From assembly GCF_058153355.1 (NCBI RefSeq), contig NZ_CM177019.1: a stretch of 64,000 nucleotides of DNA, one strand, 5' to 3'. The position numbers were made by a program, and so were the translations under genes. Shown here piece by piece: positions 3,557 to 53,339 of this stretch; the stretch's first letter is position 1, and each line of letters begins with the position of its first letter. The notes beneath the pieces were generated by a model, which had not been told where the DNA came from, searched no databases, and worked only from the letters and a program-made list of their open reading frames with translations.

Positions 3557-4207
3557 ATGAGAAATATTATGAAAAAAGTACTCATTCTTGGTGCTGGCGG
3601 TCAGATAGCCCGCCATGTGATTAATCAACTGGCAGATAAACAAACCATTAAACAAACTTTATTTGCTCGTCAGCCAGCAAAAATACACAAACCCTATCCA
3701 ACTAATAGCCAGATTATTATGGGGGATGTACTGAATCATGCAGCACTGAAGCAGGCCATGCAGGGACAGGATATTGTGTATGCCAACCTTACGGGGGAAG
3801 ATTTAGATATTCAGGCAAATTCAGTGATCGCTGCGATGAAAGCCTGTGATGTTAAACGTCTGATCTTTGTTCTTTCCCTCGGCATTTATGATGAAGTTCC
3901 AGGAAAATTTGGCGAATGGAATAATGCAGTTATTGGTGAGCCCCTAAAACCATTCCGCAGGGCTGCGGATGCAATTGAGGCTTCTGGACTGGAATATACA
4001 ATTCTTCGCCCTGCCTGGCTGACTGATGAAGATATTATTGATTATGAGCTTACCTCACGCAATGAACCATTCAAAGGTACGATCGTATCACGTAAGAGTG
4101 TCGCAGCATTAATCACAGATATCATCGATAAACCTGAGAAACACATTGGTGAGAATATAGGCATCAATCAACCCGGGACTGATGGTGATAAGCCCTTCTT
4201 CATGTAA
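3557..4207 (+). CDS. NAD(P)-binding Rossmann-fold protein (NmrA/SDR-like); probably the intact form of the locus annotated ymjC in K-12
   Basis: 216-aa ORF with N-terminal KKVLILGAGGQIARHV glycine-rich dinucleotide-binding motif; position between ycjY and mpaA. Confidence 0.7.
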   Translation: MRNIMKKVLILGAGGQIARHVINQLADKQTIKQTLFARQPAKIHKPYPTNSQIIMGDVLNHAALKQAMQGQDIVYANLTGEDLDIQANSVIAAMKACDVKRLIFVLSLGIYDEVPGKFGEWNNAVIGEPLKPFRRAADAIEASGLEYTILRPAWLTDEDIIDYELTSRNEPFKGTIVSRKSVAALITDIIDKPEKHIGENIGINQPGTDGDKPFFM

Positions 4208-47918: not shown

Positions 47919-50900
47919 TTACTCCTGACGGCGCGGTTTACCGGCAAACAAACGTTTCACCAGTACAAAAAACAGAGGAACGAAGAAAATGGCCAGTAAT
48001 GTAGCGGTCAGCGTGCCGCCAATAATGCCCGTACCAATGGCGATGCGGCTGTTCGCCCCTGCACCGGTTGCTATCGCCAGCGGCATTACCCCCGCAATAA
48101 ACGCCAGCGAGGTCATGATGATTGGGCGTAAACGAGTCTGCGCCGCGCGTAATGCCGCACGACTCAAGGAATAACCCTCTGCAACCGCCGCTTCAGCAAA
48201 TTCCACAATCAGAATGGCGTTTTTCGACGACAAGCCGATAGTAGTTAATAGCGCTACCTGGAAGTAAACGTCGTTGTTTAAATCACGCATCCAGGCCGCC
48301 AGCGCCGCGCCAAGAAGCCCCAGAGGGATCACCAGAATGACCGAGAACGGGACTGACCAGCTTTCGTACAGTGCTGCAAGGCAGAGGAAAACCACCAGAA
48401 TAGAAACTGCATACAGACTTAATGCCTGACCGCTCGCCAGTTTCTCCTGCAATGACAAACCACTCCAGGCCCAGGTTGTTCCCGCAGGAAGACTGTTTGC
48501 CAGTTCCTCCATTTTTGTCATTGCATCGCCGGAACTAAAGCCAGTCGCGTTTTCGCCCTGAATTTCATAGGCTGCCGAGCCGTTGTAGCGCACCAGTCTT
48601 TCCGGTCCATACTGCCAGCGGGTGGTCGCAAAAGCAGAGAATGGTGTCATGGCGTTATCGCTACCGCGCACAAACCATTTACCTAAGTCTGACGGCGCAG
48701 AACGAAATTCGCTGTCGCCCTGAATGTAGACTTTTTTCACACGACCACGGTCAATAAAGTCATTCACATAAGTACCGCCCCACGCACTGGACAGGGTGTC
48801 GGTGACATCATTCAAACTCAACCCTAATGACACCGCTTTATTGCTATCAATATCTACCTGCAATTGCGGCATTTGTGGCAAATCATTGGCGCGTACAGAA
48901 TGTAACTCCGGACTTTGATTCGCTTTTTCTATCAACTGATTACGCATTTGCAGCAGTGTTTCACGATCGGTTCCACCGTTAGCTAACAATTCAAACGTAA
49001 AACCATTGCTTTGGCCCAGCCCATCAACGGCTGGCGGCGTCATCGCAAATACCGTCGCATCACGAATTGTGCCCAGCTCTTTGGTAGCCCGTAGGGCGAT
49101 AGCCTGGGCGGTGTTTTCTGCCCCTTTACGTTGAGACCAGTTTTTCAACGAAACAAACGCCATCCCGGTGTTCTGTCCGCTGCCGCTAAAACTGAAACCA
49201 TCAACGGTAAAAATGACATCGGTATTTGCTTTCTCGTTAATCAGGAACCAGTCAACAATCTGGCGATTCACTTCTGCTGTACGGGCAGCGGTCGCCCCGG
49301 CCGGCAGCGTGTACTGCACCATGATTTCGCCCTGGTCTTCAGTGGGTAAGAAACTGCCCGGCAGTTTCCACATCATCAGGGCCATTCCACCACCCAGCAC
49401 GACATAAAGCCCCATCGTTCGGGCTGCACGGCGCAGGACATAAATTACGCCTCGCTGATATTTATCTTCAGTACGGCGGTAAAAGCGGTTAAATGCGCCG
49501 AAAAAGCCTTTTTTATGTGGCGGAACATGCTGGAGGACGGAACCGCACAGGGCGGGAGTCAAGGTCAATGCCACCACCACGGAAAGCAGCATTGCGGAGA
49601 TGATGGTGATGGAGAACTGACGATAAATTACGCCCGTAGATCCCCCAAAGAAGGCCATCGGCAGGAATACGGCTGACAACACCAGCGCAATGGCAACCAG
49701 TGCGCCAGAAATCTCGCCCATTGATTTTTCCGTGGCTTCACGCGCGGGCAACCCTTCGTCACGCATAATGCGTTCGACGTTCTCCACCACCACAATGGCA
49801 TCGTCCACCAGCAAGCCGATCGCCAGCACCATTGCAAACAACGTCAGGGTATTAATCGAATAGCCAAACAACGCAAGAACGCCGAATGTGCCCAGCCAAA
49901 CGACGGGGACAGCTAACGCCGGAATCAGTGTGGCACGCAGGTTTTGCAGGAATAAATACATCACGCAAACCACCAATACGATGGCTTCAAACAGCGTCTG
50001 AATTACGTCCTCTACGGAGATTTTAATAAATTCAGTGCTGTCTTTCGGGTATGCGATGTCGTATCCCTGCGGCATGTTCCGCTGGAATTCGGCAATCTTA
50101 TCCTTGACCAGCGTCGCCGTATTCAGCGCATTCGCACCGGGCGAAAGCATTACAGCAACCCCGGCAGACGGGTGACCGTTAAGTTTGCCGATAGCGGTAT
50201 AATCTTCACTGCCCATCTCAACGCGAGCCACATCTTTTATACGAACAACTGCGCCGTCTGACTGGCTTTTCACGATAATATTTTTGAACTGATCCACCGT
50301 CTGCAAGCGAGACTGCGCACGTACCGTTGCGGTCAGTTGCTGAGTATCCGGTGAAGGCAATGCCCCTATTTTCCCGGCAGTAACCTGCACGTTTTGCGCT
50401 TCAATAGCACTTTGCACGTCTGAAGGCATCAGCGAGTAAGACGCCAGTTTGGCCGGGTCGAGCCAGATGCGCATAGCGTATTCCGCGCCAAAGACTTGCA
50501 GACTCCCCACACCTTCAACACGCGCCAGGGGGTCCTGAACGTTACTGACCAGCCAGTCGGCGATATCCGAACTGGAGGCTTTGTCAGTGGTGTCATACAC
50601 GGCAGCAATCAGCAAAAAGTTGCTTTGTGATTTCTCCACCGTAACACCCGTTTGCTGCACTTCGCTGGGTAGGCGCGACTCCGCCTGCTGAATTTTATTC
50701 TGCACCTGAACCTGTGCAGTATCTGGATCGGTACCTTGTTCAAAGGTCACATTAATACTGACCGAACCATCAGAGCTACTGGTTGAGCTGAAATAGAGTA
50801 AATTATCAAGCCCAGTGAGTTGTTGCTCGATAACCTGAGTCACGCTGTTCTCCAGCGTTTCGGCAGAAGCACCAGTATAAGTGGCTGAAATTTTAATGGT

Positions 50901-51026
50901 CGGCGGTGCAACGTCAGGATATTGCGCGACGGGTAATGTGCGAATAGCCAGAATCCCCGCCAACATAATCAAAATGGCGATAACCCAGGCAAAGACCGGG
51001 CGGCGAACAAAAAAGCGCGAAAACAT
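47919..51026 (-). CDS. RND multidrug efflux permease (AcrB/HAE1 family)
   Basis: 1035-aa ORF MFSRFFVRRPVFAWVIAILIMLAGILAI...; size and N-terminus typical of AcrB-like pumps. Confidence 0.9.
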   Translation of the reverse strand: MFSRFFVRRPVFAWVIAILIMLAGILAIRTLPVAQYPDVAPPTIKISATYTGASAETLENSVTQVIEQQLTGLDNLLYFSSTSSSDGSVSINVTFEQGTDPDTAQVQVQNKIQQAESRLPSEVQQTGVTVEKSQSNFLLIAAVYDTTDKASSSDIADWLVSNVQDPLARVEGVGSLQVFGAEYAMRIWLDPAKLASYSLMPSDVQSAIEAQNVQVTAGKIGALPSPDTQQLTATVRAQSRLQTVDQFKNIIVKSQSDGAVVRIKDVARVEMGSEDYTAIGKLNGHPSAGVAVMLSPGANALNTATLVKDKIAEFQRNMPQGYDIAYPKDSTEFIKISVEDVIQTLFEAIVLVVCVMYLFLQNLRATLIPALAVPVVWLGTFGVLALFGYSINTLTLFAMVLAIGLLVDDAIVVVENVERIMRDEGLPAREATEKSMGEISGALVAIALVLSAVFLPMAFFGGSTGVIYRQFSITIISAMLLSVVVALTLTPALCGSVLQHVPPHKKGFFGAFNRFYRRTEDKYQRGVIYVLRRAARTMGLYVVLGGGMALMMWKLPGSFLPTEDQGEIMVQYTLPAGATAARTAEVNRQIVDWFLINEKANTDVIFTVDGFSFSGSGQNTGMAFVSLKNWSQRKGAENTAQAIALRATKELGTIRDATVFAMTPPAVDGLGQSNGFTFELLANGGTDRETLLQMRNQLIEKANQSPELHSVRANDLPQMPQLQVDIDSNKAVSLGLSLNDVTDTLSSAWGGTYVNDFIDRGRVKKVYIQGDSEFRSAPSDLGKWFVRGSDNAMTPFSAFATTRWQYGPERLVRYNGSAAYEIQGENATGFSSGDAMTKMEELANSLPAGTTWAWSGLSLQEKLASGQALSLYAVSILVVFLCLAALYESWSVPFSVILVIPLGLLGAALAAWMRDLNNDVYFQVALLTTIGLSSKNAILIVEFAEAAVAEGYSLSRAALRAAQTRLRPIIMTSLAFIAGVMPLAIATGAGANSRIAIGTGIIGGTLTATLLAIFFVPLFFVLVKRLFAGKPRRQE

Positions 51027-52147
51027 CAGGCATTGCCTCCATTAGCCTGAACTTCAACAGCCTTGACGGTCTGCCCTGAAGTGACTTTGGCAGAACCTTC
51101 AACAATCAGTCGGTCGCCGTTGTGCAGGCCGTTCAGCACCAGCCATTTATCACCATACGTTTCTCCCGTTTCGAGCGTTCGCTGCTCTACTTTATTGTCT
51201 TTATTCACCACCAGCGCAGTTGCATTGCCTTTAGCATCGCGCGTAACGCCCTGTTGAGGCGCGAGAATAGCGTTTTCCATCACGCCTTCATCGACACGAG
51301 CGCGAACAAACATTCCCGGTAATAACTGCTGTTGTGGATTGGGGAAAATTGCCCGTAATGTCACCGAACCGGTAGACTCATCCACCGCGACTTCGGTGAG
51401 TTCCAGACGCCCTTTTTCGCTGTAGGTTGTGCCATCTTCCAGAATAAGTGAGACGCTCATGGTGTCACTGTTGGTCGCCAGTGACTGTTTACGCAGACGT
51501 AATAAATCGACACTGGAGCGAGTGAGGTCGACATACATTGTATCCAGACCACGAATAGTCGTTAACGCTGTATCCTGCGACGCGGTCACCAGTGCGCCAG
51601 GGGTTACCGACGAAATACCAATACGCCCCGAAATCGGTGCGGTTACCGTGGTCCAGTCAAGATTAATGCGCGCAGTTTCCAGTGCGGCTTTTTTCGCCTC
51701 TACACTGGCTTTATCTTGTGCACAGGTAGACTGAGCATCATCAGCATCCTGTTGTGAAACACCATTCTCTTTCACCAGTCGGGCATAACGCTGCGCTTTC
51801 TGGCAATCGGCTTTTACCAGTGCCTGTGCTTGTTGTAATGCTGCCCGGGCTTCATTCCATGCAGCCTGATAACTGGCCGCATCAATCTGGTAGAGAGGCT
51901 GTCCAGCCTTGACCAGATCACCTTCCTTAAATAAGCGTTTCTGGATAATTCCCCCAACTTGCGGACGTACTTCAGCACTGAGCGCAGCACTGGTGCGTCC
52001 GGTTAATTCACTGACTACCGAAACCGGTTGAGATTTGAGCGTAACAACGCCGACTTCTGTTTCTGACGGGGATGAATTGTTACTTTGCGTATTATCACAA
52101 CCCGATAAGAGCAGCATTGCCACTACAGATGTTGCTATATACTTCAT
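51026..52147 (-). CDS. Periplasmic adaptor (membrane fusion protein, AcrA-like) of the RND pump
   Basis: ORF 51026..52180; preferred start MKYIATSVVAMLLLSGC (lipobox) at 52147, preceded by GGAG; stop overlaps the RND start. Confidence 0.85.
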   Translation of the reverse strand: MKYIATSVVAMLLLSGCDNTQSNNSSPSETEVGVVTLKSQPVSVVSELTGRTSAALSAEVRPQVGGIIQKRLFKEGDLVKAGQPLYQIDAASYQAAWNEARAALQQAQALVKADCQKAQRYARLVKENGVSQQDADDAQSTCAQDKASVEAKKAALETARINLDWTTVTAPISGRIGISSVTPGALVTASQDTALTTIRGLDTMYVDLTRSSVDLLRLRKQSLATNSDTMSVSLILEDGTTYSEKGRLELTEVAVDESTGSVTLRAIFPNPQQQLLPGMFVRARVDEGVMENAILAPQQGVTRDAKGNATALVVNKDNKVEQRTLETGETYGDKWLVLNGLHNGDRLIVEGSAKVTSGQTVKAVEVQANGGNA

Positions 52148-52174
52148 TATTTTCTCCAGGGTGAGAAATACCCT

Positions 52175-52275
52175 CCTCATTGAAATTAATGAGGATATGT
52201 CAGGGATATTCAGTTATAACGAACCCGCATCGCGAAATGAATTTCGCAATGAAATAAGGGGGATTAATATCCCCC
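52175..52275. promoter_or_regulatory. Cluster of three inverted repeats between the TetR gene and the MFP gene (candidate operators / pump promoter)
   Basis: tcctcatt-gaaatt-aatgagga (52174-52195), gcgaaat-ga-atttcgc (52232-52247), ggggga-ttaata-tccccc (52258-52275). Confidence 0.5.
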
Positions 52276-52295
52276 GCTATTGGTTAATTCTGTTC

Positions 52296-52862
52296 TTATT
52301 TATTTATCAACATACTAACAATATCCTGATATATTTCCTGCAGATGTTGTGGATCGCTTTTTTGCGGTGTTAAACGACGATAAACCGTACCTTCCATCAT
52401 GGTAGCAAACACTTCAACGCAGCAATGAATGTGATCGTCGCTAAGATGGGGATGCATTCTTTTCATATGTGCACAACCGTTAGCGAACATTCTGGCGTCA
52501 GCTTCTTCAAGCATTGCCATAACCCGCGGGTTGCGTGTGGCTTCTGCAGCCACTTCCAGCATCAGCGCGTCGTCGTCCTCATTTAAGGATTTACGCAAGG
52601 CAAGGACTTCCGGGAAGTGATCGGTACGCGCGTCAATGTCCATTTGGGCAATACGAAAGTCGATGATACGGCGAACCATCTCTTCAATAATGGCGTCTTT
52701 GTTGGCGAAGTAACGATATATCTGACCCACGCTAAGCTGAGCTTCGCTGGCAATTTGCGACATACTGGCGGCATGAAATCCGCAGCGACGAAAACACCGA
52801 CGGGCGGCGTTAATGATTTCATCCTGACGCTGTTTGTGGCGTATCTCCAGCTTGCTGGTCAT
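52296..52862 (-). CDS. TetR/AcrR-family transcriptional regulator
   Basis: ORF 52296..52961; preferred start MTSKLEIRHKQRQDEIINAARRCFRRCGFHAASMSQIASEAQLSVGQIYRYFANK (HTH near N-terminus), preceded by AGGAGA; co-directional with the pump genes. Confidence 0.75.
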   Translation of the reverse strand: MTSKLEIRHKQRQDEIINAARRCFRRCGFHAASMSQIASEAQLSVGQIYRYFANKDAIIEEMVRRIIDFRIAQMDIDARTDHFPEVLALRKSLNEDDDALMLEVAAEATRNPRVMAMLEEADARMFANGCAHMKRMHPHLSDDHIHCCVEVFATMMEGTVYRRLTPQKSDPQHLQEIYQDIVSMLINK

Positions 52863-52888
52863 TTCTGTCTCCTGGCCTATCACTTGGT

Positions 52889-52904
52889 GAGAATGATCAT
52901 TCTC
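52889..52904. promoter_or_regulatory. 16-bp perfect palindrome gagaatgatcattctc upstream of the TetR gene (candidate autoregulatory operator)
   Basis: Perfect dyad seen directly, 27 bp upstream of the preferred TetR start. Confidence 0.5.
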
Positions 52905-53339
52905 ATTTTTGCTAATTATACGTTTCTCCAAAGTAATGGAAAGTATTTTTATCTTATTCATGGTGCATATTCTGATAATGAAGAGATTGTGGAGATTCTG
53001 TGAAGATAGTTGACAATATTAAGTTGGGGTCAATTCATCAGAAAGGCAGCGACTTGTTGTCGCCAGTTCTGTTTTCATCATCAAACTTATCGGAGCTAAT
53101 ACGAATAGTTTCATAGTCAGATTCTATAAGATATTTCCCCAACCTACCCCTTGCAGGCGTCAAGAGTAGATAACGCAAAATGCTCTGTACCGCAGCTTCT
53201 CTCCGGTACAGAAAGCGCAACTATAGCCACCCACAGCCAGGTTGATTATAATAACCGTTTATCTGTTCGTACTGTTTACTAAAACGACGAATCGCCTGAT
53301 TTTCAGGCACAACAAGCATCAACAATAAGGATTAAAGCT

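Follow-up and report, generated by a model that had tools for sequence, protein, structure and literature searches.

Conserved RNA hairpins between eefR and eefA of the Escherichia coli eefRABCD efflux operon, the first a candidate leaky terminator of the repressor gene

INTRODUCTION

What do three inverted repeats do between a repressor gene and the efflux pump genes that follow it? The question is raised by a 64,000-nucleotide stretch of DNA (contig NZ_CM177019.1 of NCBI RefSeq assembly GCF_058153355.1, hereafter the window), in which a TetR-family gene and the adaptor gene of a resistance-nodulation-division (RND) pump are separated by a short gap that holds three dyads. The original prediction, made from the letters of the DNA, took the dyads for operators of the TetR-family repressor, and allowed that the most GC-rich of them could instead be the terminator of the regulator gene. 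Its TetR gene is eefR (52862-52296) and its adaptor is eefA, and the locus, which reads sapF / eefD-C-B-A-R / fabI, is the eefRABCD efflux operon of Escherichia coli on the minus strand. Here we describe the dyads as three RNA stem-loops, conserved by covariation across genera, in the intercistronic part of the eefRABCD transcript, where the first probably serves as a leaky terminator.

Earlier work has described the operon together with its repressor and operator. eefRABCD, which was recognised only recently as the "seventh" RND efflux operon of E. coli, occurs in phylogroups linked to infection; B2, D, E, F and G are the only ones that carry it, and its place is always between sapF and fabI (PMC12817139). 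Its function has been described in PMC12482432, where all five genes were found to be co-transcribed by reverse transcription PCR (RT-PCR) across every junction, that between eefR and eefA included, EefR was found to repress its own promoter, and inactivation of eefR raised eefA expression 83-fold. Whether eefRABCD confers resistance to drugs at all is disputed between two groups, one of which puts the discrepancy down partly to a dependence on the native eefA upstream sequence. That sequence was required for phenotypes from plasmid-borne eefAB, eefABC and eefABCD, and the authors speculated about promoter elements or unidentified regulators in the 5′ region of eefA (PMC12482432).

RESULTS

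All three dyads are present at the positions given in the original prediction, and its gap length of 148 bp (52148-52295) is right if eefA starts at the ATG of the lipoprotein-type MKYIATS... reading, at 52147, which is also the RefSeq start. Dyad 1 (TCCTCATT-N6-AATGAGGA, 52174-52195) is perfect over 8 bp. Dyad 2 (GCGAAAT-N2-ATTTCGC, 52232-52247) extends to 52228-52251, with an 11-nt arm and one G-U position, and dyad 3 (GGGGGAT-N4-ATCCCCC, 52258-52275) is perfect over 7 bp, one pair more than had been described. None of 5,000 dinucleotide shuffles of the gap contained at least three non-overlapping perfect dyads (arm of at least 7, spacer of at most 8; mean 0.14), and the gap is the only 148-bp bin of the window with three. 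In the order of the transcript, dyad 3 becomes hairpin 1 (HP1), dyad 2 hairpin 2 (HP2) and dyad 1 hairpin 3 (HP3); HP1 comes directly after the eefR stop, and dyad 1, the upper stem of HP3, lies 27-48 nt before the eefA ATG. The RNA from 52130-52300 on the minus strand folds with a minimum free energy of -47.3 kcal/mol (z = -4.06), a stability reached by 0 of 200 shuffles, and its minimum-free-energy structure contains all three hairpins. Among 2040 E. coli genomes the gap has a median copy number of 1 and a maximum of 2, and it is at least 99% identical in 1865 of them. A repetitive element of the repetitive extragenic palindrome/bacterial interspersed mosaic element (REP/BIME), enterobacterial repetitive intergenic consensus (ERIC) or miniature inverted-repeat transposable element (MITE) kind was considered and rejected, the gap being single-copy per genome and the covariance model having one match in the window.

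Comparison between genera indicates that it is the RNA structure, and not the sequence, that has been conserved. The gap, from the eefR stop to the eefA ATG, was extracted from 27 loci in which eefA follows eefR, and the comparisons span 26-30 orthologous gaps from about eight genera. Per column, the primary sequence is only ~62% identical. The three hairpins recur in place in Escherichia, Enterobacter, Lelliottia, Leclercia, Kluyvera, Phytobacter, Dryocola and Kosakonia, with stems that differ between them. RNAalifold, run on a plain MAFFT alignment, recovered HP2 with 9 pairs, 6 of them carrying compensatory changes. In a covariance-model alignment 86.0% of cells were paired, compared with 43-54% when the 3′ partners were slid by 1-3 columns, and 19 of the 25 pairs had changed on both sides, values that 0 of 500 column shuffles reached; such an alignment leans towards the structure it is fitted to, and it left HP1 partly out of register. 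By helix, the paired cells amounted to 72.9% for HP1, 92.9% for HP2 and 87.8% for HP3, the counts for HP1 and for HP3 of Kluyvera being underestimates, as realignment only partly mended their register. Double changes affected 7 of 10 pairs in HP2 and 7 of 9 in HP3, and the 26 orthologous gaps folded with z-scores from -2.3 to -4.9.

The wobble pairs also identify the strand. On the eef-sense strand G-U cells outnumber A-C cells by 31:6 in HP2 and by 16:6 in HP3, and this strand is therefore the structured one. The E. coli variants of the gap that were examined fit the RNA model: a polymorphism at 52234 (G>A) turns a G-C pair of HP2 into G-U on the sense strand only, and one in O157:H7 at 52182 (G>A) falls in the loop of HP3. 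Because pairing is kept while the sequence is free and wobbles are tolerated on one strand, the dyads are better explained as RNA hairpins than as protein-binding DNA palindromes. HP1-HP3 thus show compensatory substitutions above those of the controls, as a conserved structured cis-acting RNA does, and they are very likely RNA structures under selection.

A quite different arrangement is known from CmeR and cmeABC of Campylobacter jejuni, where a TetR-family gene lies upstream of and co-oriented with an RND operon and the operator inverted repeat is intergenic. The eef locus shares with it a TetR gene, an adaptor gene and an RND pump gene on one strand with inverted repeats between genes, and since the dyads are of about operator size, the original prediction could read them as EefR operators controlling a pump promoter in the gap. 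The two loci differ in that eefRABCD has its operator and promoter ahead of the repressor gene, with the five genes transcribed together (PMC12482432), and in that the eef intergenic repeats neither match the operator nor compete for the repressor. EefR binds one palindrome, TGAGAACGATCATTCTCA, between fabI and eefR, as found by electrophoretic mobility shift assay (EMSA), deletion and point mutagenesis, and a genome scan by its authors with MAST gave no second site (PMC12482432). The corresponding operator in the window, TGAGAATGATCATTCTCA at 52888-52905 upstream of eefR, is a perfect 18-bp palindrome that matches the published TGAGAA-N6-TTCTCA. Immediately upstream of it stands a promoter-like sequence, PeefR (TTTCCA-16-TATAAT, 52915-52942, minus strand), with 10 of 12 consensus matches, consistent with the -35 and -10 elements predicted in Fig. 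4A of PMC12482432.

The true operator is conserved in a manner that the dyads are not. Among 48 loci encoding EefR relatives it keeps its sequence, TGAGAA[C/T]GATC[A/G]TTCTCA, ~40-48 bp upstream of eefR in nearly all orthologues (Escherichia, Enterobacter, Lelliottia, Leclercia, Kluyvera, Phytobacter, Kosakonia, Dryocola and a Klebsiella sp.), whereas the dyads keep only their pairing. A Dam site, GATC (52895-52898), sits at its exact centre, and this core is retained in almost all orthologous operators. A scan of the window with TGAGAA-N6-TTCTCA matched none of the three dyads and, at no more than one mismatch, returned only 52888-52905 and 52162-52179. In the orthologues other than the window, the eefR-eefA gap contained no operator-like site with up to two mismatches, and no sigma-70-like promoter was predicted in the gap of the window or of the three orthologous loci scanned for one. 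The mobility-shift experiment on 52148-52295 that the original prediction called for largely exists as a published control. The non-specific EMSA competitor was a "148 bp fragment downstream of eefR" made with primers eefA-gel-F and eefA-gel-R (PMC12482432), which map to 52293-52274 and 52148-52168 of the window, so that the fragment (52148-52293) contains all three dyads; the gap sequence of the strain used, ATCC 35218 (Table S5, PMC12482432), is identical to that of the window. This fragment failed to displace EefR from the operator probe (PMC12482432), with the competitor apparently at only 1-2 times the probe, an amount at which weak binding could escape. With no motif match, pairing rather than sequence conserved and a negative competition, the reading of the dyads as TetR-family operators is not supported: they are very probably not EefR operators, and a pump promoter in the gap under EefR control through them is extremely improbable.

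The second of the two near matches deserves separate consideration. The sequence TGAGAA-ATACCC-TCCTCA at 52162-52179 has the correct spacing and a single mismatch. It shares part of its length with one arm of HP3, at a distance of 15-32 bp from the eefA ATG on the upstream side, and would be expected by chance at ~5e-4 per 148 bp, which speaks for an EefR site in the gap. Its sole deviation, TGAGAA to TGAGGA when read on the other strand, is the very substitution of the published single-base mutant MT-1, which abolished the EMSA shift (PMC12482432). Its central 6 bp are without the conserved GATC core of the EefR operator, and it lies inside the 146-bp fragment that did not compete. Its TTCTCA half reads TGTTCA, TATTCA or CGTTCA in every other orthologue, including those of E. 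albertii, E. whittamii and a divergent E. coli. We therefore rejected it as a second operator, since it carries a binding-dead substitution, has no GATC core and is confined to the E. coli allele of the window. EefR probably does not bind it, there is only a very slight chance that it is a weak functional site, and we treat it as a lineage-specific coincidence.

The dyads might also be DNA sites for a different regulator, either a global or a second local one, that controls a promoter of eefA inside the operon. The dependence of the plasmid phenotypes on native sequence before eefA, with the speculation of its authors on promoter elements and regulators, is compatible with this, as is the AT-richness of the gap; moreover, eefABC of K. 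aerogenes is stated to be silenced by H-NS in a passage of PMC12817139 that cites Masi et al. 2005. Crude consensus scans of the eef strand of the gap in the window and in one locus each of Enterobacter, Lelliottia and Kluyvera (L012, L011 and L032) detected no sigma-70-like promoter, and the orthologous gaps contained no positionally conserved TAnnnT (-10). An internal sigma-70 promoter was discarded as a candidate on these two results. A DNA palindrome recognised by a conserved protein should keep its sequence, as the EefR operator does, whereas the stems change sequence freely without losing their pairing, and only one of the strands admits G-U wobbles. A native ribosome-binding site and leader would explain the requirement for the upstream sequence equally well. 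Regulation of this kind is accordingly quite improbable, and the RNA hairpins remain our preferred explanation.

HP1 has the architecture of an intrinsic terminator, that is, a G+C-rich stem of at least 5 pairs that closes a loop of 3-8 nt, with U-rich sequence directly 3′ of the stem. It occupies 52258-52275 on the minus strand (GGGGGAU-AUUA-AUCCCCC), 20 nt after the UAA stop codon of eefR, and its position downstream of the stop codon on the coding strand is maintained in the orthologues at a spacing of ~17-21 nt. Its stem consists of 7 pairs, 5 of them G-C (-11.6 kcal/mol), and its loop falls within the range given. The tail, UUAUUUCAUU (52248-52257), whose last 4 nt overlap the foot of HP2, has 5 U in its first 8 positions and a TransTermHP-style tail score of -4.08, which qualifies it as U-rich. 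Scores lie between -2.5 and -5.4 in most lineages and at ~-1.9 in Phytobacter and E. asburiae; U-rich tails are found in Lelliottia, Enterobacter, Kluyvera, Dryocola and Leclercia. Its stem varies widely by lineage (GGGGGAU, CGGGAAA, GGGAAU, GGAAAU, GGCGGUG, GGCGAUGU, AACGAGA and AGAGG). In a simple scan HP1 came out as terminator-like, in the sense orientation, both in the window and in the same three loci of Enterobacter, Lelliottia and Kluyvera. The suggestion in the original prediction that the GC-rich dyad could terminate the regulator gene is therefore borne out as to form, with a hairpin and then a U-rich tail in most lineages, and HP1 is probably a leaky Rho-independent terminator of eefR. 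Termination there cannot be complete, given the published RT-PCR product across the eefR-eefA junction (PMC12482432), and HP1 would be only a partial terminator, because in the absence of EefR the pump is strongly expressed from PeefR and no promoter is predicted in the gap itself.

Two further hairpins were noted near the ends of eefR. In orthologues of the Enterobacter group (Enterobacter/Leclercia loci L012, L016, L017, L019-L021, L042 and L044), the eefR stop codon is enclosed by an additional small hairpin, UGCGA-AGUAA-UCGCA, which Escherichia lacks. In the divergent fabI-eefR region, upstream of PeefR, a terminator-like hairpin with a GCGACTTGTTGTCGC core (53047-53065) was flagged on both strands, and it is not the terminator of fabI or eefR, both of which point away from it.

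HP2 abuts the U-tract of HP1 and reads CAUUGCGAAA-UUCA-UUUCGCGAUG (52228-52251, minus strand), a 10-bp stem with one U-G pair; in 20 sequences, an invariant position of the hairpin is occupied by a U-G pair. Examples of its arm among genera are CAUUGCGAAA, CAUUUCCGGC, CAUUUCUGGC and CGUUUCCGG. Between HP2 and HP3 runs an A/U-rich linker (52206-52227, minus strand) that is predicted to be single-stranded. HP3 (52171-52205, minus strand) comprises dyad 1 and a lower stem and ends 23 nt before the eefA AUG. Its upper stem is UCCUCAUU-AAUUUC-AAUGAGGA (52195-52174), its lower stem joins CCC (52205-52203) with GGG (52173-52171), and its arm reads UCCUCAUU, CCCUGUUAA, UCUCGUUAA, UCCUCGC or GCCUGUU in different genera. 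In all orthologues HP3 and the AUG are 18-26 nt apart, and just downstream of the hairpin is the conserved block UUCACCCUGGA(G/A)AAA, which contains the Shine-Dalgarno sequence of eefA (GGAG, 52154-52157, minus strand). Sequestration of the Shine-Dalgarno sequence, by HP3 or by a UUUCUC/GAGAAA pairing specific to E. coli, was rejected, as its predicted accessibility is inconsistent across orthologues. A fourth helix (GGG...CCC before the Shine-Dalgarno sequence) was likewise set aside, since on inspection it had no consistent register across genera. HP2 and HP3 are thus structured elements of the leader, and any specific role for them is a tentative proposal.

Three separately conserved hairpins exceed the needs of a simple terminator, and this raises the possibility that they form a signal-responsive attenuator or riboregulator that switches read-through from eefR into eefABCD, the trigger being ribosome stalling, a small molecule, a small RNA (sRNA) or an RNA-binding protein. 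Such a reading would fit the persistence of HP1 in lineages with a poor U-tract, the steady distance of ~17-21 nt between HP1 and the eefR stop codon in all genera, and the frequency of drug-induced attenuation among genes of resistance to ribosome-targeting drugs. The reported substrates of the pump are mostly drugs of that class, namely chloramphenicol, erythromycin, tetracycline, clindamycin and fusidic acid (PMC12482432). A leader-peptide or switch attenuator would be recognised by a conserved leader open reading frame (ORF) and mutually exclusive helices, and neither was found. The linker contains a 6-codon mini-ORF (AUG CGG GUU CGU UAU AAC UGA) with its AUG inside the 3′ arm of HP2; in Kluyvera this AUG becomes ACG or GCG and its pairing partner changes along with it, so that what is constrained there is the pairing rather than the coding, and a leader peptide from this non-conserved ORF was dismissed. 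A scan of column pairs gave only trivial 4-bp alternatives, and a riboswitch-like alternative pairing was dropped for want of a conserved competing helix. In Rfam, the best match overlapping the gap was to sraA, whose 21 bits on the opposite strand fall short of the gathering threshold of 56 (E = 2.6), and nothing else in the gap had E < 1. The Shine-Dalgarno sequence is not consistently sequestered, and in one strain an ERIC element is tolerated between HP1 and the eefR stop. The tests that we ran lend no support to a conditional attenuator, which we regard as unlikely.

The surrounding genes confirm the identity of the locus. The ORFs around the dyads, for the TetR-family protein, the RND periplasmic adaptor and the RND permease, are all on the minus strand, and fabI, yciW, rnb and pdeR occupy the other side of the locus. 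Megablast against complete E. coli genomes found the segment in 2043 of 5426, in one copy per genome. RefSeq annotates an O157:H7 copy as sapF / major facilitator superfamily (MFS) transporter - outer membrane factor (OMF) - RND - adaptor - TetR / fabI, with a TetR gene of 188 aa. In the window eefR spans 52296-52862 on the minus strand and encodes a TetR-family repressor of 188 aa according to RefSeq, with the same start in PMC12482432. The long mechanical ORF, 52961-52296 (221 aa), over-extends it by 33 codons (52863-52961), and because the operator and the -10 and -35 of PeefR fall inside this extension, the 188-aa start at 52862 is taken as the real one. eefA (51026-52147, minus strand) encodes the periplasmic adaptor, of 373 aa with a lipoprotein signal, and eefB (47919-51026, minus strand) the RND permease, both by ORF and RefSeq. 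One base is shared by the eefA stop and the eefB start (TGATG, 51024-51028), which suggests translational coupling of adaptor and pump.

Some copies of the operon are damaged. In E. coli O157:H7 Wll001 (L001, 5025-8127) eefB is annotated as a frameshifted pseudogene, with eefR, eefA, eefC and eefD intact, and in E. coli 23CRST031 (L002) IS1 stands in place of eefR, eefA and the 5′ part of eefB. Many relatives of EefR at 59-70% identity, in Kosakonia, Kluyvera georgiana, Erwinia and Pantoea, have a similar operator upstream and no eefA within 3 kb (L007, L009, L010, L015, L022, L023, L026, L028, L030, L031, L034, L037, L040, L041 and others), and the EefR regulator family is thus attached to other neighbours as well. 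A search with the EefA protein for the eefA of Klebsiella, which there occurs without eefR, returned only near-identical E. coli proteins.

DISCUSSION

The dyads in the eefR-eefA gap are probably three stem-loops of the intercistronic RNA of the eefRABCD transcript, with HP1 acting as a leaky terminator. On this model, transcription would start at PeefR, repressed by EefR at 52888-52905, and run through eefR into the 148-nt gap, where HP1 may end a fraction of the transcripts after eefR and its hairpin may protect the 3′ end so formed. The outcome would be more message for the regulator than for the pump and a low basal expression of the pump, from a design in which an autoregulated repressor cistron is followed by a leaky terminator and then by the pump genes. 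Transcripts that read through would carry HP2 and HP3 as a structured leader ending ~10 nt before the Shine-Dalgarno sequence of eefA, where the two hairpins would most plausibly serve in stabilisation or processing of the mRNA, or in shielding the eefA ribosome-binding site from long-range pairing.

Several observations weigh against parts of this model. Read-through must be substantial, since eefA is strongly derepressed from PeefR, and termination at HP1 is our deduction from its form. Phytobacter keeps the HP1 hairpin with a tail that is poor in U, and termination can therefore not be the only conserved role of HP1. The roles given to HP2 and HP3 are conjecture, and among the orthologues the predicted accessibility of the Shine-Dalgarno sequence is neither consistently high nor consistently low. 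Klebsiella sp. BIGb0407 (L036, 3562-3603) has a gap of 42 nt with no hairpins. Escherichia sp. MOD1-EC7003 (L006, ~3585-3710) has an insertion of ~124 bp between the eefR stop and HP1, E. coli razor3 (L051, ~1590-2350) has IS1 in the gap beside HP2 with the target duplication CCCGCATCG, and Kosakonia oryzendophytica and Enterobacter sp. EA-1 are without HP2 and have an unrelated 8-bp hairpin in the same place. From the hairpin-less Klebsiella gap and the ERIC-bearing Escherichia, it follows that the module is dispensable or tolerant in some backgrounds.

These exceptional loci are of interest in themselves. The gap of Klebsiella sp. BIGb0407 keeps the block TTCAC...CTGAGAAAAA before the ATG and amounts to a natural "deletion mutant" of the module. 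The MOD1-EC7003 insertion bears both ERIC primer motifs, GTAAGCTCCAGGGGATTCAC and CACCCCAGTCACTTACT, which identifies it as an ERIC/intergenic repeat unit (IRU) element, and the three hairpins downstream of it are intact. In razor3 the IS1 separates the pump genes from PeefR, and with 23CRST031 there is more than one case of IS1 at this spot.

Processing and stability without any termination could account for some of the same features. RNase E would cut in the A/U-rich linker between HP2 and HP3, after which HP1 and HP2 would guard the 3′ end of eefR and HP3 the 5′ end of eefABCD, uncoupling the half-lives of the two messages. The linker is conserved and predicted to be unpaired between two stable hairpins, the HP1 of Phytobacter persists without a good U-tract, and the increases measured by quantitative RT-PCR upon eefR inactivation are uneven along the operon (83-, 28-, 43- and 27-fold; PMC12482432). 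The U-rich tail of HP1 in most lineages is typical of a terminator, and RT-PCR across the junction works, both of which tell against processing alone, an account that we consider rather unlikely. It overlaps with the leaky-terminator model rather than excluding it.

Intra-operon terminators and intercistronic hairpins are well known, and the eef spacer introduces no new principle. Internal terminators set expression ratios within operons, for instance the stoichiometry of ABC transporters (PMC9045158), and "clusters of hairpins" that follow stop codons have been put forward as terminators (PMC8355165). The eef spacer resembles these cases in that a hairpin and U-tract directly follow the first cistron and its stop codon and that further hairpins are clustered behind them, with the downstream genes still co-transcribed. 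It differs from them in that the upstream cistron encodes the repressor of the operon itself and not a highly expressed structural subunit, and in that its three hairpins, known here from sequence, are each conserved with covariation across genera. In emrRAB of E. coli and vexRAB of Vibrio cholerae, too, the regulator gene is the first cistron of an efflux operon, and eefRABCD shares with them an autoregulated regulator gene in first position with the pump genes downstream on the same transcript. Leader-peptide attenuators control resistance genes such as ermC and cat, and the PA5471 leader acts upstream of mexXY control. Like these, the eef spacer places a terminator-like hairpin upstream of a determinant for ribosome-targeting drugs; unlike them, it yielded neither a conserved leader ORF nor a conserved antiterminator pairing. 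Within the library that could be searched, we found no paper pairing eefR with a terminator, stem-loop, hairpin or attenuator. The three-hairpin spacer is a covariation-supported RNA motif absent from Rfam and a new example of a familiar kind of element.

Were the module an attenuator after all, it would be a previously undescribed, Enterobacteriaceae-wide one that gates read-through from a repressor gene into a cryptic multidrug pump, and would form a second, EefR-independent layer of efflux control in E. coli of pathogenic lineages. Such a device could be triggered by drugs that inhibit translation, by an sRNA or by an RNA-binding protein, and could explain why the pump phenotypes depend on the native sequence upstream of eefA.

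For the regulation of the pump, the analysis removes a tempting but wrong model, that of a second EefR operator before the pump genes, and places the only operator upstream of eefR. The structured RNA spacer is instead a definite target for mutations that ask how much pump each eefR transcript yields, and it offers a handle on the unexplained need for the native eefA upstream sequence reported for E. coli (PMC12482432).

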